Origin: an uncultured bacterium
Lineage (GTDB): Bacteria; Patescibacteriota; Doudnabacteria; UBA920
Reading direction: 5' to 3'
DNA: 64,000 nt
Assembly: GCA_963749445.1 (NCBI GenBank)
Contig: CAVVMJ010000004.1
Coordinates: 93,015 to 157,014, forward strand
The position numbers and the translations under genes were made by a program. The notes under the pieces were generated by a model. It worked only from the letters and a program-made list of their open reading frames with translations, was not told where the DNA came from and searched no databases. How positions within the stretch are numbered: the first letter of the stretch is position 1; each line of letters starts with the position of its first letter. Below, one piece after another: positions 1,908 through 63,005 of this stretch.

Positions 1908-3173
1908 ATGCTTGCCACGATACTTATTTTTATAATAATCCTTGGCGTTCTCATATTCGTCCACGAATTTGGGCATTTTGTGGTGGCCAAAAAAAGCGGG
2001 ATGAAGGTGGATGAGTTTGGGTTTGGGTTCCCGCCCAGGATGTTTGGGATTTATCAGGTTGACGGAAAATGGCGGTGGGTGTGGGGGCATAAAAATCCAT
2101 CGGCGACTCCAACCACCCCGTCCCGACTACGTCGGGACACCCCTCCTCAGCAAGGAGGGGAAGCTCCGCGGTTATCCCAGCAAAACTTCGGAGACTCTTC
2201 CCCTGATAAGGGGGAGTACCTCGCGAAGCGAGGGGAGGGGGTTGGAGATGAAACGGTTTACTCCATCAACTGGATTCCGCTAGGCGGGTTTGTGAAAATC
2301 CGCGGCGAGAATAATGAAAACGAGGATGACCCGCGTTCTTTTATCAACCGGCCGTTTTGGCCGCGGCTGGCTACTTTAGTGGCCGGCGTGTTTATGAATT
2401 TTGTGCTGGCTTGGGTGTTGATGTCAATCGGCGCGGGGATTGGCCTGCCCGCGGCCATCAGCAGTCCCAATGATTTGCCGGCCCACGCGCGTTTGGTTAA
2501 TCCCCAAATCGCCATCTTGGAGGTAATGCCCAATGCTCCGGCGGCCAAAGCCGGGCTAATGTCCGGCGATGTTATTTTGGATATAAATCACCAGCCTTTT
2601 GCCAGCGGCGAGGACATGAGTAATTATGTAAAAACGCACGCCGGCCAGAGTTTTTTATTTGACGTGGACCGCGACGGACAAAAATTATCCGTCAGCGTCC
2701 AGTCAATCGCCAATCCCGGCCCCAACCAGGGTCCAACCGGAATACAGTTAGCCAGCGTGGGCAAGCTGGTGTTCCCTTGGTATTTGGCGCCGTGGGAAGG
2801 GTTAAAGGTTTTGTATATTCAAACTTCCAGTTTCCTTTCGGGTTTGGGCCAGTTGATTACCGGTAAAGTGAGCGTTAGCAATTTAGGCGGCCCGGTAAAA
2901 ATCGCGCAAATAACCGGCCAGGTCCGGGCCATGGGTTTTGATTACCTGCTCCAGTTTGCCGCGTTTTTAAGCATTAATTTAGCGATTTTGAACATCCTGC
3001 CATTCCCGGCGCTAGACGGCGGCCGCGTGCTGTTTTTGATAATTGAAAAAGTCCGCCGCAAGCGCAATAATCAGGTCGTTGAACAATGGGTCAACACCAT
3101 CGGCTTCGCGCTTTTGATTTTGCTGATGGTCTTTGTTACGGCGCATGATGTTTTCAATATTTTTCACAAGTAA
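1908..3173 (+). CDS. rseP: RseP-like site-2 protease (M50 zinc metalloprotease with PDZ) carrying an in-frame palindromic repeat insertion
   Basis: HEFGHFVVAKK HExxH motif at N-term TM helix, PDZ-like segment (ILEVMPNAPAAKAGLMSGDVILDIN), C-terminal LDGG motif; residues ~TPTTPSRLRRDTPPQQGGEAPRL..SPDKGEYLAKRGEGVGD encoded by repeat element at 2109..2245. Confidence 0.85.
   Translation: MLATILIFIIILGVLIFVHEFGHFVVAKKSGMKVDEFGFGFPPRMFGIYQVDGKWRWVWGHKNPSATPTTPSRLRRDTPPQQGGEAPRLSQQNFGDSSPDKGEYLAKRGEGVGDETVYSINWIPLGGFVKIRGENNENEDDPRSFINRPFWPRLATLVAGVFMNFVLAWVLMSIGAGIGLPAAISSPNDLPAHARLVNPQIAILEVMPNAPAAKAGLMSGDVILDINHQPFASGEDMSNYVKTHAGQSFLFDVDRDGQKLSVSVQSIANPGPNQGPTGIQLASVGKLVFPWYLAPWEGLKVLYIQTSSFLSGLGQLITGKVSVSNLGGPVKIAQITGQVRAMGFDYLLQFAAFLSINLAILNILPFPALDGGRVLFLIIEKVRRKRNNQVVEQWVNTIGFALLILLMVFVTAHDVFNIFHK
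2109..2245 (+). repeat. RPE-like modular palindromic element, in-frame copy inside rseP
   Basis: ccaaccaccccgtc..gtcgggacacccctcctcagcaaggaggggaagctccgcg..ctcttcccctgataagggggagtacctcgcgaagcgaggggagggggttgg; nested hairpins and terminal inverted repeat ccaaccaccc/gggggttgg; highly similar to 28275..28407. Confidence 0.85.
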
Positions 3174-3185: not shown

Positions 3186-3802
3186 CCATCCCGACCGACG
3201 AGTGCAGCCGACCCGTTCGGCAATACTCAGGGTCGCCCTGAGCGAAGTCGAATGGGCGAGGAGTGGAGGGATCTGTTAAAATATATGCACTACTATGTAT
3301 ATATTATGTCCAGCTTAAGCGGAGTCTTATATATCGGATTTACTTCGGATTTAAGGAAAAGGGTATTTGAACATAAGAATGATATCGTTGAAGGATTTAC
3401 CAAGAAGTATAGGTGCCACAAACTAGTGTATTACGAGGCTGGTGAAAGTTTTGAAGGAGTGCTGGAACGTGAAAAGCAATTAAAGAAGTGGAGACGTGAT
3501 AAAAAAATTTGGCTGATCGAGAAAATTAATCCCACTTGGAAAGATTTAACCCCTGAGCTGGGAGTATAAAAATAATAAATAACAGATCCCTCCACTCCCC
3601 CTCGACTCGTTCCGATAAAGTCCGGATCTCACTCGGGGTCGGTCGGGATGGAAAGCCCCGTATTCCATTCCGAGCGAGCGGCAACAATAAGCAAATCGCG
3701 AGCCGAGGAATCTGTCAGACAAGATTACTTTATCAATTAAATTAATAGATCCCTCCACTCCGGCTGGCTTGGTATTGCGATGACAGCCGTCGGTCGGAAT
3801 GG
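3186..3802 (+). mobile_element. GIY-YIG nuclease cassette bounded by nested inverted repeats
   Basis: Perfect 18-bp IR GGAGTGGAGGGATCTGTT (3260-3277) / AACAGATCCCTCCACTCC (3581-3598) flank the ORF; outer IR ccatcccgaccgac (3186-3200) / gtcggtcgggatgg (3638-3651); extra partial copies at 3746-3761 and 3788-3802. Confidence 0.6.
3285..3569 (+). CDS. small GIY-YIG family nuclease (ORF track start 3252; likely start MHYYVYIM at 3285)
   Basis: YYVYIMSSLSGVLYIGFTSDLRKRVFEHKN...KLVYYE...REKQLKKW = GIY-YIG motif block. Confidence 0.75.
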   Translation: MHYYVYIMSSLSGVLYIGFTSDLRKRVFEHKNDIVEGFTKKYRCHKLVYYEAGESFEGVLEREKQLKKWRRDKKIWLIEKINPTWKDLTPELGV

Positions 3803-6384: not shown

Positions 6385-6520
6385 CCAAAATGGTAATAAG
6401 TTGTAGGTTTTGGCAACCGGTACGGTTATAAATAAGTAGGGAGTAAGGCTCTGCCTAACTACAATTGACCTACAACCATACTGGCCGCCACACCTTACAA
6501 CTTATTACTATCAATCAACA
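6385..6520. repeat. large hairpin repeat, GGCGGCCAGTAC family (copy a)
   Basis: long imperfect inverted repeat around ...tactggccgccacacc...; related copies at 8010-8218, 16540-16655, 31222-31345, 36487-36605, each immediately downstream of a gene. Confidence 0.65.
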
Positions 6521-7320: not shown

Positions 7321-7340
7321 ACCGCTGACCCGTTTGGCAA

Positions 7341-7372
7341 TGCTCAGGGTCACCTTGAGCAAAGCCGAAAGG
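7341..7372. repeat. CTCAGGGTCACCCTGAG palindrome-family copy
   Basis: gctcagggtcaccttgagc; other copies 3220-3250, 37521-37556, 49551-49600; often followed by 'gaatggacgctgaa' and short CAGCGACCAATCAGCG-type direct repeats. Confidence 0.6.
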
Positions 7373-7474
7373 TGAATGGACGCTGAATTTAACACCAACG
7401 CTGATTGGACGCTGAAGCGTCAAGTTCAGCTCAGCGACCAATCAGCGTACCCATCAGCGACCAATCAGCGGTAT

Positions 7475-8008
7475 ATGAAATACTTTGTATACATCTTGCT
7501 ATTAATCGTGCTCTGCGGCCTTCAGGCCGGGCTGGCGCAGGTTGTAAATATCCGCGGCCAAACCCCGCAGCTTTTGTTTTTATTGGTGTTTGTCTGGTCT
7601 TTGGACAAAAACGACCGGGATTATTTGTTTCTGACTTTGGGCGCCGGGCTGTTTTTGGATTTTTATTCCGGCGTCCCGGTGGGCAGCATAACCTTGCCGC
7701 TTTTGGCAATCAGCCTGCTGCTGCATCAACTGGTGGAAAATTTTTTGGCTTTGGAGCTCAGCCCGAAATTGTTGGCGGCTTTGCTGCTGCCGGCCCAGGC
7801 CGTGTTTTATGTACTGTATTTTTTTTGTTTGCGGTGGCTTCCCGGCTCGCGCCTGCCGGTTTTAATTCCCGGGCTGCGGTTTTTGGCCGGTAACTTTGTC
7901 ATCGCGTTCGCCTATAATTTGCTGTTTTTGTATCCCGTATTTTTATTGGTTGAATTTGTGAGGTCATTCATTCATCGCCATTTTGAGCGCGAATACAAAA
8001 TCCAGTAA
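7475..8008 (+). CDS. mreD: rod-shape determining protein MreD (likely start MKYFVYILL; ORF track start 7376 runs through repeats)
   Basis: polytopic hydrophobic protein immediately after mreC, before PBP2. Confidence 0.7.
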   Translation: MKYFVYILLLIVLCGLQAGLAQVVNIRGQTPQLLFLLVFVWSLDKNDRDYLFLTLGAGLFLDFYSGVPVGSITLPLLAISLLLHQLVENFLALELSPKLLAALLLPAQAVFYVLYFFCLRWLPGSRLPVLIPGLRFLAGNFVIAFAYNLLFLYPVFLLVEFVRSFIHRHFEREYKIQ

Positions 8009-8009
8009 A

Positions 8010-8218
8010 TCCTATTAATGGTAGCAAGGTATAGGGTGTGGCGGCCAGTACAGAAATAAGTAGCAAGGTATAAGGTGTGGCGTCCGGTGTGGTTGTAAGG
8101 AATAGGTTTTAGGTAACATATACCTTAAAACCTACTACTGCACCGGGCGCCAAAACTAATACCCTATTACCATTCCCCGTACCGGCCGCCATAACTTATA
8201 CCCTATTACATATTCTTC
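8010..8218. repeat. large hairpin repeat, GGCGGCCAGTAC family (copy b, duplicated arms)
   Basis: ggtgtggcggccagtacag...gtaccggccgccataactta. Confidence 0.65.
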
Positions 8219-13249: not shown

Positions 13250-13648
13250 ATGTCACAAAGAAAGAAAATCCTCTTGGTGGAAGACGATAACGCTTTACGC
13301 GCCACGCTTCGCGACCGGCTGCAGGGAGCGTATGAAATTTTTGAAGCCCCGGACGGCGAACTGGCGGTTTCCCAATGCGTTGACCACCGGCCGGACTTAA
13401 TTCTCCTGGATTTGCTGCTGCCCAGGCTGGACGGCTTTAAGGTTTTGGAGCGGATTAGGGCTTATCCCGACGCCAATGTGGCCAAAACGCCGGTGATTGT
13501 GTTGAGCAACCTTTGGAGCCAAAAGGACATATTGCAGGTCCAGGGCCTCAAAGTTAACGAATACTTTGTCAAAGCCCACACCAAAGTGGAAGATGTCGTG
13601 GTTCGTATCCGCGCGGTTTTCAAAAACAGCCCGGTTGGGCGGGTTTGA
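13250..13648 (+). CDS. stand-alone response-regulator receiver domain protein (paralog 1 of 3)
   Basis: KILLVEDD...D(LILLD)...PVIVLSNL...YFVK; CheY-like, no output domain. Confidence 0.85.
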   Translation: MSQRKKILLVEDDNALRATLRDRLQGAYEIFEAPDGELAVSQCVDHRPDLILLDLLLPRLDGFKVLERIRAYPDANVAKTPVIVLSNLWSQKDILQVQGLKVNEYFVKAHTKVEDVVVRIRAVFKNSPVGRV

Positions 13649-15451: not shown

Positions 15452-15535
15452 GATAATTTGTGTCCATCCCGGAATTTTTTGTGCCGATGGATAGCACAAG
15501 CCGCAAAAAATACCCGGGATCCAGAAAGTAATCGT

Positions 15536-16006: not shown

Positions 16007-16083
16007 GTGAAATTGCGAGTGCAGCCGAAGCAATCCCCTTAAATAATGAGATTGCTTCGTCGGATGCACTCCTCGCAATTTCC
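16007..16083. repeat. GAAATTGCGAG hairpin-repeat family copy
   Basis: gtgaaattgcgagtgcagccgaagcaatcccc..gattgcttcgtcggatgcactcctcgcaatttcc. Confidence 0.7.
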
Positions 16084-16112
16084 AGAGCAGCGGTCTACCA
16101 TCATAAAAATAT

Positions 16113-16538
16113 ATGGCTAAGAAAGTTAAGGTTCAGCTAAAATTACAGTTACCGGCCGGAAAGGCCACGCCGGCGCCGCCGGTGGGCACGGCTTTGGGCC
16201 CGCACGGCATTAATTTGGGCGCGTTTGTTAAGGATTTTAACGACAAGACCGCGGCAATGGGGGATACTATCGTGCCTATAGTTATGACGATCTACGAAGA
16301 TCGCAGTTTTTCGTTTATCTTAAAAACCCCGCCGGCTTCCAATTTGATTATGAAGGCCATCGGCCTGGCAAAAGGGTCCGCGAATCCATTAACGACAAAG
16401 GTCGGCAAGATCACCGCCAAGCAAGTGCGGGAGATTGCGGAAAAGAAAATGCCGGATCTAAACGCCAACGATATGGCCGCGGCGGAAAAAATTATCCGCG
16501 GCACCGCTAGGTCAATGGGGGTGGAAGTTATTGATTAG
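16113..16538 (+). CDS. rplK: 50S ribosomal protein L11
   Basis: [43 protein letters not shown]... Confidence 0.95.
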
Positions 16539-16539
16539 T

Positions 16540-16655
16540 AGTAGGTTATAAGGTATAGCGGCCAGTACAGTAATAAGGTATGGGTTTTAAGTGGCCTTAT
16601 TACCAATGCCTTACAACTAAACCGGCCGCCATAACCTATAACCATTAACCTAAAA
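16540..16655. repeat. large hairpin repeat, GGCGGCCAGTAC family (copy c)
   Basis: ttataaggtatagcggccagtac...aaccggccgccataacctataa. Confidence 0.7.
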
Positions 16656-17426: not shown

Positions 17427-17433
17427 CTGAAGC

Positions 17434-17531
17434 TTGATGGGCATCTTCGTGTTTCTACGACCGCTTACGATGGTTATCAGTTAACGATAAATTGAAGTTG
17501 GTGGTTGTTTTGGCAAGAAGATGCCCATCAA
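17434..17531. mobile_element. MITE-like 99-bp element, copy 1 (TIR TTGATGGGCATCTTCGTG)
   Basis: ttgatgggcatcttcgtg...cttgccaa motifs...aagatgcccatcaa; intergenic between SPFH gene and rplA leader. Confidence 0.85.
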
Positions 17532-18432: not shown

Positions 18433-18867
18433 ATGTACGACGATTCAAGCAAAAAAATTTTGGTGATTGAGGACGATTTGGACTACCGCAAATCCCTATA
18501 TGATTTGCTCGGCCACGAATTCAGTTTTATTGCGGCCGATGACGGCGAGCAGGGGATAGAGCGTCTGTTGGTGCACCGGCCGGATTTGGTAATTTTGGAT
18601 TTGTTGTTGCCCAAAATTGACGGCTTTGAAATTTTAAAAAGGATCCGCGAATACCCGGACGAAGGCATTAAAAAAACTCCGGTCATCGTATTAAGCAATT
18701 TGGCGGGTAACGAAGATTTTGTCAAGGCGCAGAATTGGAAAGTGGAGGCTTATTTTGTCAAATCCCATACCGAACTGGCTGAAGTCAAAGCAAAAGTCAA
18801 AGAGGTGGTCTATCAGGGCACCGGCGGTCCCAAAGAAGAGGTCATGGATTTTCGGGATATAGCGTGA
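18433..18867 (+). CDS. stand-alone response-regulator receiver domain protein (paralog 2 of 3)
   Basis: KILVIEDD..DLVILD..PVIVLSNL..YFVK. Confidence 0.85.
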   Translation: MYDDSSKKILVIEDDLDYRKSLYDLLGHEFSFIAADDGEQGIERLLVHRPDLVILDLLLPKIDGFEILKRIREYPDEGIKKTPVIVLSNLAGNEDFVKAQNWKVEAYFVKSHTELAEVKAKVKEVVYQGTGGPKEEVMDFRDIA

Positions 18868-18962
18868 GCGGAGCGAACAACAATATTTTTCTCCCCCTCT
18901 GGGGGAGATGGCCGCAGGCCAGAGAGGGTGTTTCTGGCAGGGGGGTTAAAAGTTTAAAAAAT

Positions 18963-18990
18963 GGCGGCCTTCGGCCGCCGTTTTGTTTTA
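18963..18990 (+). terminator. rho-independent terminator after receiver gene
   Basis: ggcggccttcggccgcc followed by gttttgtttt. Confidence 0.6.
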
Positions 18991-19194
18991 TTATTAATTT
19001 TTTGACGGCCGTCAAAAAATTAATAATTTGATTTACGTCTGCAAAAATTGATAGGTTATTTTTTTATTGGAGAAAGGATGGCAAAAAAGTTATCAAATTT
19101 TGAGGGGTGGAGGTGGGGGAGTTGACAGCGCAACTTCCCCCACCGTGTCGGCGATCGGCCGCGCGGGTGCGCGACGGATGCCGAAAATTACGCG

Positions 19195-19422
19195 CTAGTG
19201 AGGGATCGCGGGCTCAGAGGCGCTGTCCCTTAGCAGTGTGGCGACCTCACCGTTTTCGGGACGAAGTCCCTTGAAGCGTCTCCCGTCATCGTGCCGAACC
19301 TCCAAGTAGTAAGAGGGGCTCGACGCAAGGGGTCCCGTGAAGCTAAGGATGGTCACTCCGTCGACCCTAATCCCGACCCTGATTTCGGGAATTCTGACCG
19401 TAAGTGTTTCCTGCACGTACAT
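19195..19422 (-). CDS. small hypothetical protein in a GC-rich island (start MYVQETL with SD caggaggg)
   Basis: strong SD 5 nt before ATG; composition visibly more GC-rich than surrounding genome; no recognisable motifs. Confidence 0.3.
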   Translation of the reverse strand: MYVQETLTVRIPEIRVGIRVDGVTILSFTGPLASSPSYYLEVRHDDGRRFKGLRPENGEVATLLRDSASEPAIPH

Positions 19423-19510
19423 TGTGCCCTCCTGGGCGTTATGAAATTCGGCCGCAACTTCCGGCCGCAAAGATAATAATTACATAAACTATCATCTTTT
19501 CGACCACAAG

Positions 19511-19546
19511 ACAAAATCAAAAACCCCGGGCCGCGAGGCCCGGGGT
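19511..19546 (-). terminator. rho-independent terminator (minus strand)
   Basis: ccccgggcctcgcggcccgggg stem followed on minus strand by tttttgatttt. Confidence 0.6.
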
Positions 19547-19742
19547 TTGGAGTTTGAATCAACTTATATCAAAACTCTTCCCATGCCAAGCGGCGCCGGA
19601 GTAATAATAATGATTATGCTGTTGGAAGAATGTATTCTGCGCATTTGTGGTATTATAGCAGGGCAAAAATTTTTGTCAAATGAAGAAGCGGGCCAATGCT
19701 TCTTCTCCGTTGAAGCCTGGCCCGCCGTCGCTTTCCCTCCGG

Positions 19743-19946
19743 CTATCCACTACCCCCTTCTTGTTTTGGAATCATAACCGAATATTCTTCGACGCTGACA
19801 CGTTCATGCCCATCGGGCGTCTTGTTTATACGACGGTATATCAACGTCGTATGTGTTGCAGAGTTTCCAATTTGGAAAACCCTGCCTTTTGTCCCGTCGG
19901 GTAATTTCACCTCGACGATTCTTTTTCCGTCTCGGATGAGTTTCAT
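19743..19946 (-). CDS. small hypothetical protein (start MKLIRDGK, SD ggaggg)
   Basis: 67 aa, SD 6 nt upstream of ATG; terminator downstream. Confidence 0.35.
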   Translation of the reverse strand: MKLIRDGKRIVEVKLPDGTKGRVFQIGNSATHTTLIYRRINKTPDGHERVSVEEYSVMIPKQEGGSG

Positions 19947-20215
19947 TTTACCCTCCGAATTGGCCGTAAAAATTATGGCTAATTCGCAAGGTAAAACAAA
20001 AACCACCCATTGCGGTGGTGTGAGCAAAATGTAAGTTTTTTGTACTTTTTACATCTTGTTTATCCCAACCGCAAAGGCGACCATCTTAGTGGTCTTGGTC
20101 TTCTTGGTTGTGGCAAAAGCAAAATGCATATATTAAAATTTTATCAGCAGATTGTAATTTTGTCAAATGGGGACAAATGTAGTAGAATATCTTTGTGTCA
20201 ATTGTTAATCGTTAA

Positions 20216-20803: not shown

Positions 20804-20839
20804 TGCCGTTGATTAGTCACTGACGGGTCTGAAAATTTG

Positions 20840-20938
20840 TTGATGGGCATCTTCGTGGTTCCATAAACGCTAACTGATGATTATCGGCTAACTATAAATA
20901 ACGGCCGAAGATTGTTTTGGCAAGGAGATGCCCATCAA
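20840..20938. mobile_element. MITE-like 99-bp element, copy 2
   Basis: ttgatgggcatcttcgtggttccataaacg...ggcaaggagatgcccatcaa. Confidence 0.85.
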
Positions 20939-20970
20939 TCTTAAAACGTACGTCCTTCGTAAATATTTGG

Positions 20971-21928: not shown

Positions 21929-21961
21929 GGTTGATGGTTAATTTTTAGGTTGTGATTTGAG

Positions 21962-22060
21962 TTGATGGGCACCTTCGCTGTTCCACAATCGCTGATTGAT
22001 TGTTGTCGGATAGTGTAGGATTGAGATCGAAGATTGTGTTGGCAAGAAGGTGCCCATCAA
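21962..22060. mobile_element. MITE-like 99-bp element, copy 3 (slightly diverged TIRs)
   Basis: ttgatgggcaccttcgctgttccacaatcg...ggcaagaaggtgcccatcaa. Confidence 0.8.
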
Positions 22061-23941: not shown

Positions 23942-23972
23942 ATTAGTTTAAATAGGTAAATTAAGGATAATT

Positions 23973-24109
23973 GCGGAGCCTCTCCTCCTATTTATAGGAG
24001 GAGTACCCTGCGTCAGCAGGGGGAGGTGGTATTAATACTTGCCGATTAGTACCACCTCGTCCCGCTTCGCGGGACACCCCTCCTATGCAAGGAGGGGAAT
24101 GCTCCGCGG
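23973..24109. repeat. RPE-like modular palindromic element, intergenic copy (modules in swapped order)
   Basis: gcggagcctctcctcctatttataggaggagtac...gtcccgcttcgcgggacacccctcctatgcaaggaggggaatgctccgcgg. Confidence 0.8.
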
Positions 24110-24136
24110 TTATTCTTAATAAAAAAGTACGGTCTT

Positions 24137-27387: not shown

Positions 27388-27525
27388 GTGGCTGACATAT
27401 TGGAATCTTAAATGATGGAGTATTTAGCAAGCCCTTTTCAAAAGGGCTTTTTTTGTGTATAATTTTTTTACCCTTTTTGCCCCTGCTCCGGGGGCGGGGA
27501 GGGTTCTGGCTACTTTCGGGCTGAT

Positions 27526-28021: not shown

Positions 28022-29254
28022 ATGAACGAACTCATCAAGCGGCTGGAAAATCTCAAATCCGAAATCTCAAATCTGAAATCCCATTTGGATTTGCCCCAAA
28101 AGGAGCAGAGGATCTTGGAATTGGAAGACAAGATGCAGGTTCCAAATTTTTGGAATGATAATGAAAACGCCCAAAGAATATCAAAGGATTATAACCAGTT
28201 AAAGCTGTTTGTTGATTTTTGGAAAGATTTGGAAAAGGATATCCAGGAAACACTGGATTTGGTTAAAGACACTCCAACCACCCCGTCTGCTTTGCAGACA
28301 CCCCTCCTTGAAAAGGAGGGGAATGCTCCGCATGTATCCCCGAACAAACGCGGAGCCTCTCCCCCTGACAAGGGGGAGTACTCCGCGAAGCGGGGGGAGG
28401 GGGTTGGAGATATAAAAATATCCGATGCGGATTATCTTAGGCAACATACGGAACAGCTGGAGGAACAATACCGCAAAAACCGTTTTGTTGCGCTGCTTTC
28501 CAAAAAATACGACGACCACAACGCAATTTTTTCTCTGCACAGCGGCGCCGGGGGGCTTGACGCCCAGGATTGGGCGGAAATGCTCCTGCGGATGTTTTTA
28601 CGCTATTGTGAACGCCGGGGATTTATTACAGAAATTTTAGAATCAAACCGCGGAGCGGAAGGCGGCATTAAATCGGCTGTTGTGGAAGTTCACGGGCCGT
28701 ATGCTTACGGCTTGCTAAAAAGCGAGGCCGGCGTTCATCGGCTTGTCCGATTGTCGCCGTTTAATCCCGCGCACACCCGCGAAACCTCTTTCGCGCTTTT
28801 GGAAGTTTTGCCGCTTTTGGAAGATGTAGAAAAAATTGACATCGACCCCAAAGATTTAAAAATAGAAGCCAATACCGCCTCTGGCCACGGCGGGCAATCG
28901 GTCAATACCACTTATTCCGCCATCCGGATTACGCATATTCCCACCGGCCTTAAAGTCAGCATCCAAAACGAGCGCTCCCAGCACCAAAACCGCGAAATCG
29001 CCATGAAAATTTTGATGGCTAAGTTGAAAACTTTGGAAGAGGAAAAATTGCAACAGGAAAAACTGGAAATTCGTGGGGAATTTAAATCGGCCGAATGGGG
29101 AAACCAAATTCGCTCCTACGTTATCCATCCCTACAAACTGGTCAAAGACCACCGTACCGGTTTTGAAACCTCAGACCCGGATAGCGTTCTAAACGGTGAA
29201 CTGGACGAGTTTGTGGAAAGATATTTGGAAAAAACCGCGGTGACCGCTGAATAG
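28022..29254 (+). CDS. prfB: peptide chain release factor 2 (single uninterrupted ORF) with in-frame palindromic repeat insertion
   Basis: GGQ (SGHGGQSVNTT), SPF motif (RLSPF) = RF2; start MNELIKRLENL; residues TPTTPSALQTPLLEKEGNAPHVSPNKRGASPPDKGEYSAKRGEGVGD encoded by repeat 28275..28407. Confidence 0.9.
   Translation: MNELIKRLENLKSEISNLKSHLDLPQKEQRILELEDKMQVPNFWNDNENAQRISKDYNQLKLFVDFWKDLEKDIQETLDLVKDTPTTPSALQTPLLEKEGNAPHVSPNKRGASPPDKGEYSAKRGEGVGDIKISDADYLRQHTEQLEEQYRKNRFVALLSKKYDDHNAIFSLHSGAGGLDAQDWAEMLLRMFLRYCERRGFITEILESNRGAEGGIKSAVVEVHGPYAYGLLKSEAGVHRLVRLSPFNPAHTRETSFALLEVLPLLEDVEKIDIDPKDLKIEANTASGHGGQSVNTTYSAIRITHIPTGLKVSIQNERSQHQNREIAMKILMAKLKTLEEEKLQQEKLEIRGEFKSAEWGNQIRSYVIHPYKLVKDHRTGFETSDPDSVLNGELDEFVERYLEKTAVTAE
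28275..28407 (+). repeat. RPE-like modular palindromic element, in-frame copy inside prfB
   Basis: ccaaccaccccgtc..gacacccctccttgaaaaggaggggaatgctccgc..gcggagcctctccccctgacaagggggagtactccgcgaagcggggggagggggttgg. Confidence 0.85.
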
Positions 29255-29469
29255 ACGCTGATATGTACGCTGATCTGTCGCTGAAACCCAATGTGTCCAT
29301 CCCGGAATTTTTTGCGCTGATGATTATCATGGGTCGCAAAAAATATTCGGGATCCAGGCACACGTTTCTTTCCCTTTTGCCAATTTTTTGGTACAATGTA
29401 CTTATAAACATCGCTTTGAAATAAATACTGACCGGCTGATAAGCGTATCAGCTGATAAGCTTGTAAGCT

Positions 29470-30192: not shown

Positions 30193-30292
30193 GAAATTGC
30201 GAGCCCTAAGTGCACCCGAAGGGCGCGGCAATCCCTCTCTTTAATAGGATTGCTTCGTCGCCAGACAAAGCCCTGGCTCCTCGCAATTTCAC
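30193..30292. repeat. GAAATTGCGAG hairpin-repeat family copy (between ftsE and ftsX)
   Basis: ggaaattgcgagccctaagtgcacccgaagggcgcggcaatccc...ggattgcttcgtcgcc...ctcctcgcaatttcac. Confidence 0.7.
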
Positions 30293-31221: not shown

Positions 31222-31345
31222 TGTATAGTTGTAAGGTATAAGGCGTGGCGGCCGGTACGGTTATTGGGATATGGTCTTGGGTGACTTATGCCCTATTACT
31301 TATTACTACACTGGCCGCTATTCCTTATAACCTATGACTTTCAGG
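31222..31345. repeat. large hairpin repeat, GGCGGCCAGTAC family (copy d)
   Basis: ggcgtggcggccggtacgg...cactggccgctattcc. Confidence 0.65.
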
Positions 31346-35425: not shown

Positions 35426-35434
35426 TTCAACCAG

Positions 35435-35533
35435 TTGATGGGCATCTTCTTGCCAACACAATCCTCGACCGTTGTTTGTCATTATTCGATGATTATCAGT
35501 TGGCGATTGTGGAACCACGAAGATGCCCATCAA
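35435..35533. mobile_element. MITE-like 99-bp element, copy 4 (opposite internal orientation)
   Basis: ttgatgggcatcttcttgccaacacaatcctcgacc...gtggaaccacgaagatgcccatcaa. Confidence 0.85.
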
Positions 35534-35669
35534 TCGAAAGTTAAAATTATGGACATTATCCAGGTAAAAAATCTTACCATCCGCCTTCGCTCCCGACTTC
35601 GCCAAGGCTTCGTCGGGTAAGAAAGCTTCGGCGGATCTCTGCCGGATTTTTAAAATTTTCCGATTTATT

Positions 35670-36485
35670 ATGACTATGAGCGATAACAATATTATTAAGG
35701 TTAGTAATCTTTCGAGGAAATTCGGGGATTTTAAGGCTGTGGATAACATTTCCTTTGAGGTCAAACAGGGTGAAATTTTCGCTTTTTTGGGGCCGAACGG
35801 AGCGGGAAAATCCACGACCATTAAAATGCTGACAACTTTGCTTAATCCGACTCGCGGCAGCATTGAGCTTAACGGTTTTAACCCCGTAAAAAACGCCAGC
35901 GCGGTGCGCAAGGCTTTTGGCATCGTCTTCCAGGACCCGAGCCTGGACGACGAGTTGACTGCCTGGGAGAACATGGAATTCCACGGCGTGCTTTACGGCG
36001 TGCCCAAAAAATTGCGCCGAGAAAGAATTGAACAACTGATGAATTTTGTGGAGCTGTGGGACCGCAAAGACAGTTTGGTCAAAGAATTTTCCGGCGGCAT
36101 GAAGCGCCGTTTGGAAATCGCCCGCGGGCTGCTCCACCATCCCAAAGTCTTGTTTTTGGACGAACCGACCATTGGGCTGGATCCGCAAACCCGGAACCAC
36201 ATGTGGAATTATTTGCTGGAGCTAAACAAATCCGAAGGCATAACGGTATTTTTTACCACCCACTATATGGAAGAGGCAAGCAAGATTGCCCAGCGGATTG
36301 CCATTATTGACCACGGCAAAATTGTGGCCACCGGCACCACGGAAGCCTTGCAGGCGCAAACCCAAACCGCTTCTTTGGAAGACGCGTTTTTAAAGCTGAC
36401 CGGCAATGTCATCCGCGACGAGGAAGCCAGCGCCACGGACCGCCTGCGCGCGCACCGGCAGTGGCGCGGCGGCGGCCGACGATAA
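35670..36485 (+). CDS. ABC transporter ATP-binding protein (ABC-2/DrrA-like)
   Basis: GPNGAGKSTT, LSGGMKRRL, LFLDEPTIGLDP. Confidence 0.9.
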   Translation: MTMSDNNIIKVSNLSRKFGDFKAVDNISFEVKQGEIFAFLGPNGAGKSTTIKMLTTLLNPTRGSIELNGFNPVKNASAVRKAFGIVFQDPSLDDELTAWENMEFHGVLYGVPKKLRRERIEQLMNFVELWDRKDSLVKEFSGGMKRRLEIARGLLHHPKVLFLDEPTIGLDPQTRNHMWNYLLELNKSEGITVFFTTHYMEEASKIAQRIAIIDHGKIVATGTTEALQAQTQTASLEDAFLKLTGNVIRDEEASATDRLRAHRQWRGGGRR

Positions 36486-36486
36486 G

Positions 36487-36605
36487 GTTTTGGTTGTAAG
36501 GTATGGCGGCCAGTATAGTAATAGGTTTTGGGTTGTAAGTAACTTATAACTTTTTACCTACAACTATACTGGCGGCCACAACTTAAAGCTTATTACTTTT
36601 TAAAA
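36487..36605. repeat. large hairpin repeat, GGCGGCCAGTAC family (copy e)
   Basis: gtatggcggccagtatagtaatagg...ctatactggcggccacaactt. Confidence 0.7.
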
Positions 36606-37354: not shown

Positions 37355-37591
37355 GGCCACCGGCCACCCTCGGAATATCGGCAAAACCGCGGAGCCTCTC
37401 TCCTTTTGAGGAGAGATGTCCCGCGCTTTGTTTAAGAATTATAATAGCCAAAGCGAGGGACAGAGAGGTTGCCTGGCTTGATTATTGCAACCTCTCCCTA
37501 GCCTCCCCTCACCACTTCGGCTTCGCTCAGGGTGACCCTGAGCCTTGCCGAAAGGGTCAAAAGGGGAGGGAGCTCCGCAGATAATCCAAAT

Positions 37592-39332: not shown

Positions 39333-39379
39333 CTTAACAAATTTGTGTTATACTAAATTAAATGGTTTGGTCTGCGGTC

Positions 39380-39478
39380 TTGATGGGCATCTTCATGGTT
39401 CCACAAACCTCAATCAATAACTATCCGGTAATGATAAATAACGGTCGAGGGTTGTATTGGCATGAAGATGCCCATCAA
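39380..39478. mobile_element. MITE-like 99-bp element, copy 5
   Basis: ttgatgggcatcttcatggttccacaaacc...ggcatgaagatgcccatcaa. Confidence 0.85.
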
Positions 39479-45929: not shown

Positions 45930-47378
45930 TTAAGCCAAATCTTTCAAATCATCCATGACTATTTTTGTCAGGCTGGCTCTTTCGGAATGGATAGCTTTGT
46001 CCAGTTGGTCGACCGGAACCCATCGAAAACCCATAAACTCGTGATGATCAACATAAACTTTGTCATCCGCGCCTAAAAATTTAAAATAGGCAATATTTTG
46101 AACCTGCCCGATGTTTTTATGCCTGCGGTTGTGCCAAAATTTACGCGCGGCGTTATTCCAAATGTAAGTGTTGGTATGCGGGGAGATTTTGATAAATTCT
46201 AAATTTTTTATTCCGGTTTCTTCCAGGGCTTCTCTTTTTGCCGCTTGTATTAGATTTTCTGTGCCGTCTATTCCTCCTTGCGGCAACTGCCAGTAATTTG
46301 CTCTCTTTAAATTTTCTTTTGTCGTCATAACATCGACGTGGAAATTTTTGGGGTCGCGCTGGCAAACCAGGACTTCATTTTTTTTATTAAGAATGGCTAT
46401 CGCGATGTTCGGCCTTAAGGGCAGGTTCGCAAAAACTTTATAGTGCCACAGGGCGGATGCCAGGCCGAAAGTCGCGTTAATAATTCTGGGCAGGCGCTTG
46501 GGCTGGGTGAACAGGCGCCAGAGCCATTCCAGGCCCGTTCGGCGCAAAAAACGCGGCGGCTGGGGCTGTTTGCCGGCGATGTAGTCAAATGTTCCGCCCA
46601 GGCCGACAACCAGTTTTATGGGCAAATCCGGCAAGTTTTTGGCAATCCACTTTTCCTGCCTGATTGGACCGAAGGCCACAAACAAGAGGTCAGGCGCCGC
46701 CTTTTTTATGTCCTCGATAATGGTCGGGTTATCAGGGTTTTTGTTTGACCACCCGGCCACCTTGAGTTTACTAGCTGATTTGCTTATTAGCTTATCAGCT
46801 GCTAATTTTGGTGTGTCGCCGAATCCGCCTAAAAGGTAAACTGATAAATTATTATCAACAGCCAGTTTTGCCAAATCCCAAACCAAATCTGCGCCGGGGA
46901 TTTTTTCTTTCATACCACCTCCCCCGCCTGCGGCGGGTACTCCTCCTATGATAGGAGGAGAGCTCCGCGTGTCATCCGAGGATAGCTGCGGAGCGTCCCC
47001 TCCTAAAGTAGGAGGGGTGGCCGCGTTAGCGGACGGGGTGGTATTGTAAATAAATTTTGGATAAAAAACTATCGCCGCCAAACTGTATTTAATTTGCCAC
47101 GCTGCCTGCAGAATTTTTCCCCAGTAGGATTTGGCGGTAAGAGGAATTGATAAATATCGGGCGGCCCAAAACAAACCAATGCCGTCGGGCACGGCAATGT
47201 CAGCGGAATTTAAAATTTGCATCACTTCCGGGTCCAGCAACGCGGCGCGTAAAAACTCGGAGTACGGCGTGATTAGCCAGGTTTTTTGCCCGTTTTTTAT
47301 CTGCTGGCGTAAGCGTTCAAGCAATTCGGCTTTCGTCAGCGCGTCAATTTTCAATCCCGCGATGTCGATTTTGTCCAT
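45930..47378 (-). CDS. WecB/TagA/CpsF-family glycosyltransferase fused to C-terminal NUDIX hydrolase, with in-frame repeat insertion (start MDKIDIAGL; ORF track extends to 47750)
   Basis: TagA-like LITPYSEFLRAALLDPEVMQILNSADIAVPDGIGLFWAAR; Nudix box GGIDGTENLIQAAKREALEETGI; residues ATPPTLGGDAPQLSSDDTRSSPPIIGGVPAAGGGGG encoded by repeat 46915..47042. Confidence 0.6.
   Translation of the reverse strand: MDKIDIAGLKIDALTKAELLERLRQQIKNGQKTWLITPYSEFLRAALLDPEVMQILNSADIAVPDGIGLFWAARYLSIPLTAKSYWGKILQAAWQIKYSLAAIVFYPKFIYNTTPSANAATPPTLGGDAPQLSSDDTRSSPPIIGGVPAAGGGGGMKEKIPGADLVWDLAKLAVDNNLSVYLLGGFGDTPKLAADKLISKSASKLKVAGWSNKNPDNPTIIEDIKKAAPDLLFVAFGPIRQEKWIAKNLPDLPIKLVVGLGGTFDYIAGKQPQPPRFLRRTGLEWLWRLFTQPKRLPRIINATFGLASALWHYKVFANLPLRPNIAIAILNKKNEVLVCQRDPKNFHVDVMTTKENLKRANYWQLPQGGIDGTENLIQAAKREALEETGIKNLEFIKISPHTNTYIWNNAARKFWHNRRHKNIGQVQNIAYFKFLGADDKVYVDHHEFMGFRWVPVDQLDKAIHSERASLTKIVMDDLKDLA
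46915..47042 (-). repeat. RPE-like modular palindromic element, in-frame copy inside tagA-NUDIX gene
   Basis: reverse complement reads ccaccccgtccgctaacgcggccacccctcctactttaggaggggacgctccgc...cgcggagctctcctcctatcataggaggagtac...gcgggggaggtgg; same translation frame as copies in rseP/prfB. Confidence 0.8.
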
Positions 47379-47431
47379 AATTGAATTATATCCTATTTTA
47401 GCCTGATTTGATAGCATTTTTTTGATCTTTC

Positions 47432-61715: not shown

Positions 61716-63005
61716 TTAGGTCAAATATTTTTTATTTTTTAATTTTTCGGGTAGATAAGAATCTTTGTCGTATTTTCCGTAATCTTTGCCGTAGTCCAGT
61801 TTTTCCATTAATTTGGTGACGGGGTTGCGGATTTTTAAGGGCACGGGGAGATTGCCTTCTTTTTTGACGTCGGCCAGCGCGGCCATGTAAGCGTTATAAG
61901 CGCTGCGGTCTTTCTTGCATAGTGAAAGATACGCGACGCCTTGGGCGAGATTTTCCCGGCATTCGGGGTAGCCGATGGTTTCGCAGGCGCGGAATACGGC
62001 ATTGGCCACTACCAAAGCGGTAGGCTGCGCGAGCCCAATATCTTCCGAAGCGAATACTACCATCCGGCGCGCAATGAATAACGGATCCTCTCCGGCTTCT
62101 ACCATCCGCGCCAAATAATAGAGGGCGGCATCGGGCTGCGAAGCGCGCATGCTTTTTATAAAAGCGGAAATGACGTTATAGTGTTCCTCTCCGGCTTTGT
62201 CGTAGCGCAGGAATTTGGATTGCAGGGTATCTTTAAGGGATTGTAAAGTTATTTTACCGTAAAGTTTTTTGGTGTTTTCAATCATACTAATGGCTTGGCG
62301 CGCGTCGCCATTGGACATTTGCACCAGCCACGATTTTGCGTCAGAACTGATTGCCGAGGGTTCCCCTCGGCTTCGGGTTTTCTTAGTCCGAGGGGAACCC
62401 TCGGTCGCCAACATTGCTTGATCGATTATCTTTCCAATATCCTCATCTCTTAATTCTTCCAGCACAAACACGCGGCAGCGGGAAAGCAGCGGAGCGATGA
62501 CTTCGAAGGATGGGTTTTCGGTGGTTGCGCCTATCAGATATAATTTTCCGGTTTCCACGGAAGGTAGTAAAAAGTCCTGCTGGGCTTTGTTGAAACGGTG
62601 AATCTCATCGAGGAATAATATTTTGGGTTTTTGTGTCCCCTTCTCCCCTGGCGAGGGGAGATGTCGCGAATGCATCTGAGCGACAGAGAGGTCGAACGGC
62701 TGTTGCCCGCCAGATTCTTGATTTTTATCAAAGGAGTCTTTTTTCGAGTCGTTCTCCACAATTTTTTTAATGTCGTCTTTGCTGGCGCTGACTGCGGACA
62801 GCTCAAAATATTCCGCGTTGAGGGCTTTGGCATATATCCGCGCCAAAGTGGTCTTTCCCACCCCGGGCGGCCCCCAAAAAATAAAACTGAACAAATGTTT
62901 TTGCTCAATGGCAATCCTTAAAGGCTTGCCCGGGCCGACCAGATGCTCTTGGCCGACAAAGTCCTTTAAGGACGTGGGGCGGATTTTATTGGCTAATGGT
63001 TCCAT
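61716..63005 (-). CDS. rarA: replication-associated recombination protein A (MgsA/RarA AAA+ ATPase) with two in-frame palindromic insertions
   Basis: Walker [10 protein letters not shown], Walker [12 protein letters not shown], sensor regions; extra segments encoded by palindromes at 62340-62405 and 62630-62705. Confidence 0.9.
62340..62405. repeat. palindromic insertion inside rarA (in frame)
   Basis: cgagggttcccctcggcttcgggttttcttagtccgaggggaaccctcggtcg; encodes [18 protein letters not shown]. Confidence 0.6.
62630..62705. repeat. degenerate RPE-like palindrome inside rarA (in frame)
   Basis: ccccttctcccctggcgaggggagatgtcgcg; encodes ..[14 protein letters not shown].. Confidence 0.6.

Follow-up and report, generated by a model that had tools for sequence, protein, structure and literature searches.

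The 64-kb stretch of DNA analysed here (the window) contains several copies of a GC-rich, nested-palindromic repeat, three of which lie in frame inside conserved protein-coding genes. We consider it probable that this repeat is non-autonomous selfish DNA of the REP/MITE class that behaves like the Rickettsia palindromic elements (RPEs) and resides in a Candidatus Doudnabacteria-like host. The host is a member of the Patescibacteria, as judged from its closest RF2 and RarA homologues and from where the element occurs. The RPE-like behaviour suggested in the preliminary description, namely in-frame palindromic insertions in conserved genes that are absent from orthologues, is therefore found in an unrelated, small-genome lineage.

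Copies and architecture of the repeat

The identities proposed earlier for the host genes (rseP, prfB, tagA-NUDIX, and rarA) were borne out by their Pfam domains (Table 1). The start of tagA-NUDIX is likely near position 47417, and the 606-aa ORF that begins at GTG 47750 is probably too long. Copies of the element in rseP, prfB, and tagA-NUDIX, together with one intergenic copy between thyA and a CYTH gene, were confirmed both by alignment and with an nhmmer profile built from the three genic copies, whose E-values are far beyond chance. Their modules, terminal repeats, and peptides agreed with the preliminary description, and the intergenic copy indeed carries the modules in swapped order, M2 before M1. 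Because thyA and the CYTH gene are both on the minus strand, the units of this copy are antisense to the flanking transcription. The nucleotide similarity between copies persisted after careful alignment (nhmmer, and alignments of 19 and 23 copies): copies with an identical architecture in unrelated genes are 62–90% identical over approximately 135 nt. The G+C content of the element is 65–70%, compared with 46% for the genome. The insert in rseP encodes (T)PTTPSRLRRDTPPQQGGEAPRLSQQNFGDSSPDKGEYLAKRGEGVG(D), predicted peptides from the RF2 insert or its junctions include DTPTTPSALQTPLLEK and EGNAPHVSPNK, and the tagA-NUDIX copy measures 129 nt from ACCACC to GGTGGT.

Table 1. Host genes, element copies, and related palindromic inserts in the window (element coordinates include the extended terminal inverted repeats)
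Feature	Position	Strand	Details
rseP, site-2 protease (M50 + PDZ)	1908..3173	+	Pfam
Full element M1-M2, tail-to-tail dimer	2107..2247	+	In frame in rseP; 141 nt, 47 codons; nhmmer E 9e-38
Solo M3 variant unit	18885..18935	+	Intergenic, just after response-regulator gene; E 8e-7
Head-to-head dimer (M2, spacer, M1)	23960..24123	+	Intergenic; nhmmer halves E 8e-14, 3e-10
prfB, RF2 (PCRF + RF-1)	28022..29254	+	Pfam; one continuous frame from Met 28022
Full element	28272..28409	+	In frame in prfB (RF2); 138 nt, 46 codons; nhmmer E 6e-38
Mosaic, GCGGAGC...GCTCCGC brackets	37375..37588	+	Intergenic; M3 unit + repeat family D10 copy
tagA/wecG-NUDIX fusion (WecG + NUDIX)	45930..47417	-	Pfam
Full element, ATACCACC...GGTGGTAT subfamily	46912..47044	-	In frame in tagA-NUDIX; nhmmer E 4e-34
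rarA/mgsA (MgsA)	61716..63005	-	Pfam; 100% identical to database protein P0121
Different palindromic insert	62354..62404	-	In rarA; perfect 17-bp arms, 17-nt loop; encodes 16-letter stretch
Solo M3 variant unit	62637..62699	-	In frame in rarA, Walker A to Walker B; E 2e-13

The element is a nested, inverted dimer of a two-hairpin unit of approximately 60 nt, giving four hairpins and a central stem. Each unit consists of a head, (CTCCA)ACCACC, a variable hairpin A, a conserved hairpin B (CCCCTCCT-n5-AGGAGGGG), and a tail, GCTCCGC-nn-TATCC. Tail-to-tail dimers (M1-M2) are 129–145 nt long and have sense frames without stops; head-to-head dimers, solo units, and arrays also occur. The terminal inverted repeats are CTCCAACCACC/GGTGGTTGGAG or ATACCACC/GGTGGTAT, and in the alignments of 19 and 23 copies the borders are sharp and the flanks unrelated, across more than 15 distinct genes.

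All four full copies fold far better than shuffled sequence (z of -7 to -13), and none of 200 shuffles folded as well as the real copies. The DNA fold of the rseP copy has an energy of -44.4 kcal/mol (z = -7.3) and the RNA fold of the intergenic copy -106 kcal/mol (z = -12.8); the z-scores of the prfB and tagA-NUDIX copies are -8.9 and -8.0. The hairpins are kept by compensatory changes: 95.8% of cells are paired, compared with 57–66% in slid controls, and nine pairs have changed on both sides, a result equalled by 0/500 shuffles. Hairpin A was analysed copy by copy, since RNAalifold missed it in the alignment because of indels; it takes 16 distinct stems in 23 copies, nearly all of which still form hairpins, with GC-rich stems of 4–8 bp and loops of mostly 3–4 nt. 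Its head is CGTC in 17 of the 23 copies, TGTC in one, and CCTC in one, and its tail is CCA in 14 and ACA in 7. Hairpins B and C are conserved in both sequence and structure, although the search patterns demanded exactly those stems. The hairpins pair a Shine–Dalgarno-like AGGAGG with CCTCCT, and a tally of pair types gave 18 G.U wobble pairs on the sense strand and 10 A.C pairs. No Rfam family reached its gathering score in the window, and on the element only sub-threshold hairpin look-alikes were seen.

The degenerate relatives that had been listed in addition to these copies were sorted into two groups. Three of them, at 62637–62699 (rarA), 37395–37476, and 18885–18935, are units of a separate variant, M3, whereas those at 62354–62404 and 27440–27500 do not belong to the family. 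At locus L077, M3 stands in place of M1 beside a normal M2, and M3 is therefore part of the same modular superfamily. The mosaic region at 37375–37588 resembles the main element weakly (E 0.002–0.08) and matches the M3 unit at E 2.6e-10. The main-element profile had no nhmmer match at 62354–62404, and this different hairpin lies outside the main family. Nor was there an nhmmer match at 27440–27500, part of which reads as an ordinary stem followed by a T-run after the preceding ORF. GC-rich islands did not discriminate further inserts in the window, because ordinary coding DNA locally reaches 66% G+C.

Insertion sites, reading frame, and encoded peptide

Comparison with orthologues showed that the segments in RF2 and RarA are insertions. 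Most RF2 orthologues (75–83% identical, 360–365 aa) do not contain the segment, and the corresponding site is empty in a syntenic relative (L145). Likewise, RarA orthologues of 376 aa have neither of the two rarA segments. The rarA copies proposed earlier are thus true insertions, but one, within a segment of approximately 35 aa, is an M3 variant unit and the other a different hairpin, rather than the element of approximately 135 bp; the latter insert occurs in one orthologue (P0122) and is missing from many others. Three RF2 proteins bear inserts of different subfamilies at what looks like one position and fall into different neighbour-joining clades of a tree without support values. This points to recurrent insertion at one RF2 loop, although a single ancient event, with later losses and gene conversion, could instead have produced the pattern. 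Some insertions are common to species-level MAGs.

When mapped onto solved homologues, the inserts fall at loops or junctions. Residues 47–113 of the RseP query face residues 45–48 of Aquifex RseP (9j82), approximately 75 extra residues of TagA lie at the residue-80 junction of structure 7mpk, and the prfB insert is located between two long helices of RF2 domain 1. The insert adds approximately 45 residues rich in Pro, Ser, Thr, and Gly, which are probably disordered. In an AlphaFold model of RF2, which was poor overall (mean pLDDT 54) and confident only in domain 1 around the insert, residues 87–131 had pLDDT values below 50 and no secondary structure, with 10-residue block means of 31–37 across 91–130.

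The genic copies had been described as read in the same frame. In all three, the phase of the host ORF is the same before and after the element, but the rseP and prfB frames differ between hairpins A and B; the difference is confined to this interval because a -4 and a +1 indel cancel. Among full copies located well inside ORFs of ≥150 aa, all 32 were in the sense orientation, 25 in phase 2 and 7 in phase 3, and a second, independent ORF-calling pass gave 33 sense and no antisense genic copies. The 32 copies are all stop-free and keep the host frame, with internal indels compensated inside the element, whereas intergenic copies carry stop codons and AT-rich centres. All genic full copies are tail-to-tail dimers except that at L022, whose halves are head-to-head, in frame. 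Between co-directional genes, by comparison, 12 copies were sense and 14 antisense. Because orientation is unbiased there, the sense bias within genes looks like selection on the translated product, and insertion coupled to transcription is unlikely. Stop codons were rejected as the cause of the bias, since open frames are equally frequent in antisense and in unselected sense, and replication-coupled insertion was rejected because, in 3 of 24 cases, the gene that the element follows is on the C-rich strand.

The peptide sequence is not conserved, because internal frame switches that are restored downstream (e.g., PPAKEEYP vs PPIIGGVP) change it. At the DNA level, the M1 half of orthologous insertions in Dus and DUF6580 proteins is 87–91% identical, compared with approximately 55–76% in most flanking blocks. 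In a set of 5.8 billion proteins, no match to a short peptide profile reached E ≤ 0.01, the query being too short for a database of that size, and an exhaustive search of representative proteins returned 12 proteins, one of which is an unrelated eukaryote-like repeat protein.

Distribution and proposed mode of spread

Outside the window, the M1 core was located at 20 loci, spread over five Candidatus Doudnabacteria MAGs. The M2 core is present in at least 120 metagenome stretches, and many metagenome contigs carry further copies. Host proteins named by Pfam are TGT, Dus, DUF6580, TatD, AlaRS, PolA, a Zn-dependent alcohol dehydrogenase, an ATP-grasp enzyme, RecG, RF2, a Mur ligase, transketolase, and an ABC transporter; sequence reading adds a Dus with two copies and MnmA-like, ATP synthase gamma-like, and ThrRS-like proteins. 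In the Doudnabacteria genomes every full copy lies inside a gene, and most of these genes are housekeeping genes. The exact 24-nt M1 core was also found once each in a Saccharibacteria MAG, a betaproteobacterial MAG, a Prevotellaceae MAG, and Larkinella soli. These occurrences, and the CGTC head and CCA tail that hairpin A shares with the REP superfamily to which RPE-4 and RPE-6 belong (PMC3733652), leave the independent emergence suggested in the preliminary description no more than a possibility. The element had no match in plasmid and phage collections, and IMG/VR contained no match for the M1 core and one for the M2 core; these searches therefore did not point to a phage or plasmid as vector.

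No transposase or RAYT was detected by Pfam among approximately 65 ORFs of the window, and a tblastn search of 0.93 Mb of related loci, a weak test with an IS200 TnpA query, gave no IS200-like match. The flanks of 19 aligned copies contain no direct repeat indicative of a target-site duplication; RF2 sites with and without the insert could not be used for this purpose, because the loop has diverged. No target motif was found in the insertion sites. A small GIY-YIG protein (3252–3569) was considered as a mobiliser but gained no support, since its homologues in two Doudnabacteria loci do not adjoin elements. Since neither an enzyme for mobilisation nor a target-site duplication or motif came to light in these searches, it is the distribution of the copies that points to mobility. 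Movement by a single-strand, hairpin-recognising (HUH/RAYT-like) enzyme, or by template switching in the host, would agree with both the hairpin ends and the missing target-site duplications. The best identity between non-orthologous copies in one genome is 85.6%, and no sign of recent or ongoing transposition was seen.

We infer the translation of the insert, its near-neutrality, and its mode of movement, and propose the following course of events. Copies would insert in either orientation, as their unbiased orientation between genes suggests, and, spacer DNA being scarce in a compact genome, many would land in genes. Those that survive would be copies that keep the frame, lie in the sense orientation, and occupy a tolerant surface loop. 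Such copies would then be transcribed, translated into approximately 45 probably disordered residues, and inherited across species. The peptide is, on this view, a passenger, and it is the DNA or RNA hairpin structure that is conserved.

Several other explanations must be weighed against selfish spread. It is unlikely, in our estimation, that the element spreads without any transposase, by ectopic gene conversion or hairpin-primed template switching, with its stems maintained by quasi-palindrome correction rather than selection. Such spread would agree with the missing target-site duplications in the 19 aligned copies, with the lack of a transposase gene in the window and of an IS200-like match in the weakly tested 0.93 Mb of loci, with the modular shuffling of M1, M2, and M3 (head-to-head, tail-to-tail, solo, and arrays), and with the presence of different subfamilies at the same RF2 site; CGTC-type REPs, too, are reported to lack a dedicated transposase (PMC3733652). 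However, sharp borders and terminal inverted repeats amid unrelated flanks at more than 15 distinct genes are not easily explained by conversion alone, as homology is lacking in the flanks, and a transposase could lie elsewhere in the genome, outside the window. There is also a small chance that the repeat is an exapted functional element under positive selection, serving either through mRNA or DNA hairpins (ribosome pausing, co-translational folding, mRNA stability, or a protein-binding cruciform) or through a flexible-linker peptide. The strictly sense orientation of genic copies, the compensatory changes in the stems, and the conservation of hairpins B and C, although these stems were required by the search patterns, are in keeping with this idea, and the greater conservation of the M1 half than of its coding flanks in the Dus and DUF6580 insertions, together with retention across species-level MAGs, could mean function rather than neutrality. 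Nevertheless, close orthologues of the same essential proteins manage without the insert, the hosts are functionally unrelated, the peptide is unconserved with internal frame switches, and homogenisation by gene conversion or the needs of a mobility mechanism would also preserve hairpins. The wobble pairs show no clear strand asymmetry, which argues against selection on the mRNA strand alone.

It is very improbable that the insert escapes translation as an intron-like RNA, through intein-like peptide removal, or by ribosomal bypass. The fold is indeed very stable, and GC-rich mobile hairpins bypassed by ribosomes ("byp" elements) are known from yeast mitochondria and provide a precedent. In contrast, no Rfam ribozyme or intron matched the element, and stop-free, frame-keeping genic copies (32/32) with compensated indels alongside intergenic copies with stops and AT-rich centres are expected only if ribosomes read through the insert. 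The probability that these segments are ordinary lineage-specific, low-complexity loops that resemble one another by convergence or chance is negligible. Their Pro/Gly/Ser/Thr-rich, low-complexity peptides, and the empty result of the peptide-profile search, would be expected of such loops; this reading is refuted, however, by the nhmmer E-values, by the RF2 orthologues without the segment, and by the multi-copy alignment, with its 62–90% identity and identical architecture in unrelated genes, and one copy also lies between genes. A broader version of the selfish reading, which we regard as rather doubtful, is that of a palindrome specialised in dwelling within genes, with its hairpins under nucleic-acid selection, and able to move between phyla, since the core also occurs in Saccharibacteria, a betaproteobacterium, and Bacteroidota. 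The tail-to-tail form may have evolved a stop-free, benign sense frame that allows it to colonise the coding sequence of essential genes in streamlined genomes, where intergenic refuge is almost lacking, and the hairpins may serve a putative single-strand DNA transposase or the tuning of host mRNA translation through SD/anti-SD pairing.

Relation to known palindromic repeats

With this element, the residence of selfish DNA within protein-coding genes, classically seen as a peculiarity of Rickettsia, extends to the Candidate Phyla Radiation, where it affects core machinery (RF2, RseP, AlaRS, PolA, RecG, TGT, Dus, and Mur ligase). Part of the variation in protein length among Patescibacteria, and of their "lineage-specific insertions", is accounted for by this repeat, a warning to annotators and structure predictors that such segments are repeat-derived. 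The many 45-residue loop insertions, together with insert-free orthologues, constitute a natural experiment on the tolerance or recruitment of new segments. Given its modular two-hairpin unit, CGTC head, and lack of both a target duplication and a known transposase, the element also offers a lead on RAYT-less REP mobility.

An RPE insert in Gmk of R. conorii is on the surface of a protein that is expressed. RPEs are palindromic repeats of 105–146 bp, RPE-1 to RPE-8 (Ogata 2000, 2002, as summarised in PMC2229807). The present element (129–145 nt) resembles RPEs and the WPEs of Wolbachia in being a palindrome with terminal inverted repeats that forms a long stem-loop, in occurring both between genes and in frame within housekeeping genes of a small-genome bacterium, with the insert absent from orthologues, and in having no clear target-site duplication and no linked transposase; this likeness is drawn from descriptions of RPEs rather than their sequences. 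It differs in its host (Patescibacteria, not Rickettsia or Rickettsiales), in its G+C content of 65–70% in a 46% G+C genome, in its build of two inverted 60-nt units with four hairpins and a central stem, which also occur as solo units, head-to-head dimers, and arrays, and in its Pro/Gly/Ser/Thr-rich peptide, predicted to be disordered.

The group of CGTC-tagged REPs includes RPE-4, RPE-6, and the Neisseria dRS3 (Di Nocera et al. 2013, PMC3733652). Hairpin A of the present element has a CGTC/TGTC head in 18/23 copies and a CCA tail in 14/23, as in that group; further shared traits are inverted dimers, intragenic dimers or clusters that encode 20–82 aa, hosts that include DNA repair enzymes, tRNA synthetases, and tRNA-modification enzymes, and no known dedicated transposase (PMC3733652). 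The stems of CGTC REPs are 8–9 bp long and open with two A/T pairs, with loops of 4–5 nt, whereas those of hairpin A here are 4–8 bp and GC-rich, with loops of mostly 3–4 nt; each unit here adds a second, sequence-conserved hairpin and a GCTCCGC tail (PMC3733652). CGTC REPs form mainly head-to-head dimers, as does the intergenic copy in the window, whereas the genic copies here are tail-to-tail except that at L022, and Patescibacteria are not among the hosts named in the available part of that report (PMC3733652).

Among other repeats found fused to genes, the MITEs ERIC/RU-1, the 107-bp Correia element, and QMITE1/2 of Coxiella are 100–200 bp long with terminal inverted repeats and are sometimes in frame. 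They are, however, mostly intergenic, TA or another target sequence is usually duplicated, and where they are fused to genes it is mostly at the ends or in hypothetical genes (PMC2229807, PMC2759123, PMC5896051). Of the traits of IS-derived MITEs, the element has the terminal inverted repeats and not the target-site duplication (19 aligned copies).

REPINs are inverted doublets of REPs, each with a GTAG head, that are mobilised by RAYT, a Y1 HUH transposase. The present element likewise consists of hairpin repeats paired in inverted orientation into a mobile doublet that folds as one long hairpin, and it has no target-site duplication, but its units have no GTAG at either end, and no RAYT was found among the window ORFs (Pfam) or in related loci (weak tblastn search with an IS200 TnpA). 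In fungal mitochondria, GC-rich palindromic mobile clusters also occur, some in frame in protein genes such as yeast VAR1; the yeast GC clusters are organellar, much shorter, and lack the two-unit modular architecture. REPs and MITEs inside genes have already been described in several phyla, which makes the phenomenon less unusual than the preliminary description assumed; the element represents a novel family within a known kind of selfish DNA, RPE-like or intragenic REP-like, here in a phylum that is new for it.

Copies, architecture, and folding of the element

Direct reading and alignment placed the same palindromic element at four sites of the window, as the preliminary description had proposed, with three copies within genes and a rearranged copy in an intergenic spacer. 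Searched with a profile of the three genic copies, the window returned these at E-values of 6e-38, 9e-38, and 4e-34, and the intergenic copy as two halves at 8e-14 and 3e-10. By Pfam, the host proteins were M50+PDZ (RseP), PCRF+RF-1 (RF2), WecG+NUDIX, and MgsA/RarA. Two inverted units of ~60 nt, M1 and M2, with four hairpins (A to D) in all, make up the element, a long imperfect palindrome. Each unit comprises a head, (CTCCA)ACCACC; a sequence-variable hairpin A, usually with CGTC at the start and CCA or ACA at the end; a conserved hairpin B (CCCCTCCT-n5-AGGAGGGG in M1, CTCCTCCT-n4-6-AGGAGGAG in M2); and a tail, GCTCCGC-nn-TATCC. The units are arranged tail to tail (M1-M2) in genes and head to head (M2, spacer, M1) in the window intergenic copy. 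The genic copies had been described as read in the same frame, and the phase of the host ORF was indeed equal at entry and exit in all three; however, a 4-nt deletion and a 1-nt insertion that offset each other put rseP and prfB in different frames from hairpin A to hairpin B. Three of the supposed degenerate relatives proved to be a variant unit, M3 (CCTCTC-TCCCC-n-GGGGAGA-TG-hairpin-CAGAGAGG), with more members in other loci. In one retrieved locus (L077), M3 takes the place of M1 beside a normal M2, and M3 therefore falls within the same modular superfamily. In contrast, the second rarA segment is a separate perfect hairpin, and 27440-27500 was not a family member on sequence reading and a profile search of the window.

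As a single strand, the element folds into a multi-branched cloverleaf or one long hairpin, with energies far below those of shuffled controls: -44.4 kcal/mol (z -7.3) for the rseP copy as DNA, and, as RNA, -85.7 (z -8.9) for prfB, -82.9 (z -8.0) for tagA-NUDIX, and -106.1 kcal/mol (z -12.8) for the intergenic copy. In a 23-copy alignment, standard pairs made up 95.8% of pair cells and nine pairs had changed on both sides; none of 500 shuffles reached the observed values, and slid controls were 57-66% paired. Hairpins A and D had 16 and 10 distinct stems, respectively, nearly all keeping the hairpin form, whereas the invariance of hairpins B and C is uninformative because the search patterns had fixed both. 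The tally of pair types gave no clear strand asymmetry of wobble pairs (sense strand, G.U 18 vs A.C 10), so that it fits an RNA-level and a DNA-level role of the structure alike.

Coordinates of the element, related units, and other repeats (window positions unless a retrieved locus, L, is named)
Feature	Position	Strand	Context
Element copy	2107-2247	+	rseP
Element copy	28272-28409	+	prfB
Element copy	46912-47044	-	tagA-NUDIX
Rearranged element copy	23960-24123		intergenic, thyA / CYTH-domain gene
M3 unit	62637-62699		rarA
M3 unit	37395-37476		
M3 unit	18885-18935		
Perfect hairpin	62354-62404		rarA
M1-like units	L018 4310-4540; L002 180-310; L020 3630-3710; L024 5950-6190		outside Doudnabacteria
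M2-unit tandem arrays	L118 197-2520		metagenome contig
TTGATGGGCATCTTC...GAAGATGCCCATCAA repeat	17433-17531, 20839-20944, 21961-22060, 35434-35539, 39379-39484, 39934-40039, 42669-42774, 58027-58132, 60021-60072		
..GGTATAAGGTnTGGCGGCCAGTAC.. repeat (D4-D6, D9)	6390-6511, 8016-8212, 16533-16652, 31223-31341, 36481-36599		intergenic
D10 repeat (GACCCGTTCGGCAATGCTCAGGGTCACCCTGAGC...)	3206-3266, 7323-7369, 37502-37559, 49538-49583		every copy directly past a gene end
D11 repeat (TGTCCATCCCGGAATTTTTTG...)	15459-15524, 29292-29357, 50659-50724 (and 1857-1892)		
D17/18 repeat (GCAATCCC..GGGATTGCTTCGTCGGATGCACTCCTCGCAATTTCC)	16030-16086, 30228-30260, 44283-44339		
D20 repeat (TCAGCGACCAATCAGCG repeats)	7431-7480, 29243-29285, 49623-49673		
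GIY-YIG ORF	3252-3569		adjoins a D10 copy
Response-regulator receiver genes	13250-13648, 18433-18867, 57617-58021		stand-alone

Distribution, host genes, and orientation

The M1 core, searched as an exact 24-nt pattern in species-representative genomes, was found at 24 loci, 20 of them in five Ca. Doudnabacteria MAGs. All 15 full-length copies scored in these MAGs were in sense orientation within long ORFs, and a sixteenth locus (L022) carried both halves in frame in swapped order. The hosts named by Pfam were TGT, TatD, AlaRS, PolA, a Zn-dependent alcohol dehydrogenase, an ATP-grasp enzyme, RecG, RF2, Mur ligase, transketolase, an ABC transporter, and, at the same site in two genomes each, Dus and DUF6580. 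The remaining M1 cores lay in a Saccharibacteria MAG, a betaproteobacterial MAG, a Prevotellaceae MAG, and Larkinella soli; therefore, the unit extends beyond Doudnabacteria. The M1-like units of these genomes keep the common head, hairpins, and GCTCCGC tail, and stand in tandem in the betaproteobacterial MAG (66% G+C), as a head-to-head dimer in the Saccharibacteria MAG, and singly in the other two. At least 120 metagenome stretches carried a match to the M2 core pattern, with a G+C content of 30-58% among the matches listed. One metagenome contig (L118) holds tandem arrays of M2 units with an AT-rich spacer (period ~92 nt, >13 copies); conservation of the spacers sets these arrays apart from CRISPR. 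When 1.84 billion representative proteins were searched exhaustively by HMMER for the peptide profile, just 12 reached E ≤ 0.001, including, on sequence reading, Dus with two copies, MnmA-like, ATP synthase gamma-like, and ThrRS-like proteins, PolA, and Mur ligase; the in-frame form is thus globally rare. The 427-aa Dus P0241 of the representative library carries two in-frame copies, at residues 32-81 and about 193-240.

In a census of full copies, 32 lay well inside ORFs no shorter than 150 aa; every one of these was in sense orientation and none antisense, with 25 in phase 2 and 7 in phase 3. One further copy, sense and in phase 1, lay near an ORF start. The 20 outside long ORFs were all metagenomic and more divergent (median score, 44 vs 84), several with AT-rich, stop-containing centres. 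Full copies inside genes were sense in 33 cases and antisense in none, and for solo or partial units the counts were 20 and 7. Stop codons did not account for this bias, as antisense frames were open in 5-11 of 23 copies, equal to unselected sense frames; nor did replication direction, as the window and 2 of 21 further loci have the element following a gene on the C-rich strand. Insertion coupled to transcription is unlikely, since 12 units were sense and 14 antisense between co-directional genes and the window intergenic copy is antisense to both adjacent genes. The simplest reading of the sense-only bias would be random insertion followed by selection on the translated product.

Insertion sites, mobility, and other repeats

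The expectation that the extra segments are absent from orthologues was borne out by most RF2 and RarA orthologues. RF2 homologues of Patescibacteria, some named Ca. Doudnabacteria, share 75-83% identity outside the segment and are mostly 360-365 aa long, vs 410 aa in the window, and the RF2 site is empty in a relative (L145) syntenic with the window from ~24 to 39 kb. The window RarA is 100% identical to a database protein from a 198,939-bp contig, and most of its orthologues (376 aa) lack both extra segments. Two database RF2s, P0001 and P0002, bear related inserts at the same loop as the window prfB. A single old insertion into this loop followed by losses is still conceivable; however, a neighbour-joining tree of non-insert columns, without support values, placed the three insert-bearing RF2s in three separate clades amid insert-free relatives, the P0002 insert groups by subfamily with the window tagA copy and not with the prfB copy, and other relatives have different short Pro/Gly-rich inserts in the loop. 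These sequence comparisons point to repeated insertion into one permissive RF2 loop. The window RF2 gene (28022-29254) is one uninterrupted frame from Met, and the programmed +1 frameshift site that is common in bacterial prfB was not apparent in its sequence.

The mapping of inserts proposed in the preliminary description located that of RF2, in a predicted model, between two long domain 1 helices (residues 47-82 and 133-160; pLDDT 81-92), with residues 87-131 at pLDDT <50 and without secondary structure; the model is poor elsewhere (mean pLDDT 54). In structure alignment, RseP residues 47-113 stand opposite residues 45-48 of Aquifex RseP, and TagA has ~75 extra residues relative to structure 7mpk, at its residue-80 junction. 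The insert peptides differ through internal frame switches that are restored downstream, as with SSPPAKEEYPALAGGGG vs RSPPIIGGVPRAAGGGG in orthologous Dus insertions, and the M1 half shares 87-91% DNA identity between species-level MAGs vs ~55-76% in most flanking coding blocks. The conserved entity is probably the DNA or RNA structure, with the peptide as a passenger.

The borders of the element are sharp and the flanks unrelated between copies; no target-site duplication or target motif was visible in the flanks of the aligned copies. In the ~65 window ORFs, Pfam found no transposase; apart from one small GIY-YIG protein, the genes were all housekeeping. A tblastn search of 0.93 Mb of loci for IS200-like TnpA, itself a weak test, was negative. 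Plasmid and phage collections gave zero matches to the element and IMG/VR a single one. Identity among non-orthologous copies of one genome peaks at 85.6% and thus gives no sign of recent activity.

The window holds further repeats (families D1-D3 and I1-I10 for the palindromic TTGATGGGCATCTTC...GAAGATGCCCATCAA repeat of ~100 nt). Nearly all nine copies of this repeat lie in intergenic spacers, a very high density for 64 kb of a small genome; the ..GGTATAAGGTnTGGCGGCCAGTAC.. repeat occurs in direct and inverted copies, and many intergenic spacers of the window hold a member of D11, D17/18, or D20. The GIY-YIG protein next to a D10 copy (105 aa; Pfam E 2e-14) has homologues in two Doudnabacteria loci, and no link of D10 or this protein to the main element was seen. 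The three response-regulator genes have a 94-nt DNA stretch in common (D7). The segments 18868-20215 and 58130-58960 lack ORFs of at least 100 aa and contain GC-rich, strongly folding stretches (e.g., 19101-19253 and 58601-58771); Rfam gave nothing at threshold in either and no gathering-score match in the whole window. A second, seemingly repeat-derived peptide, NPHP(D/N/S)P(L/S)P...(K/R)GEG, recurs in loops of differing housekeeping proteins of related genomes (RF2 P0008, P0009, and P0015; RarA P0124; Dus in L013). Several insert families seem, judging from these peptides, to colonise proteins in this lineage.

Comparison with known palindromic elements

Elements of this kind are known already, and our literature searches turned up none described from Patescibacteria. 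The window element may have emerged independently in the Doudnabacteria lineage, although the M1 core is also present in other groups. Rickettsia palindromic elements (RPEs) are 105-146 bp long, have terminal inverted repeats, and are fused in frame into 19 conserved genes; an RPE-bearing Gmk is translated (PMC2229807). The behaviour of the window element matches that account, as had been claimed. It also matches that of REPs found within genes by Di Nocera et al., who describe CGTC-tagged REPs, RPE-4 and RPE-6 among them, that form dimers, lie within DNA-repair and tRNA-related genes, and have no dedicated transposase (PMC3733652). Compared with these CGTC REPs, hairpin A has the same CGTC head and CCA tail, but its stem and loop dimensions differ and the window element has a second conserved hairpin; because of these differences, we file it neither as an RPE nor as a CGTC REP. 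The element works like RPEs and CGTC REPs and is set outside both classes.
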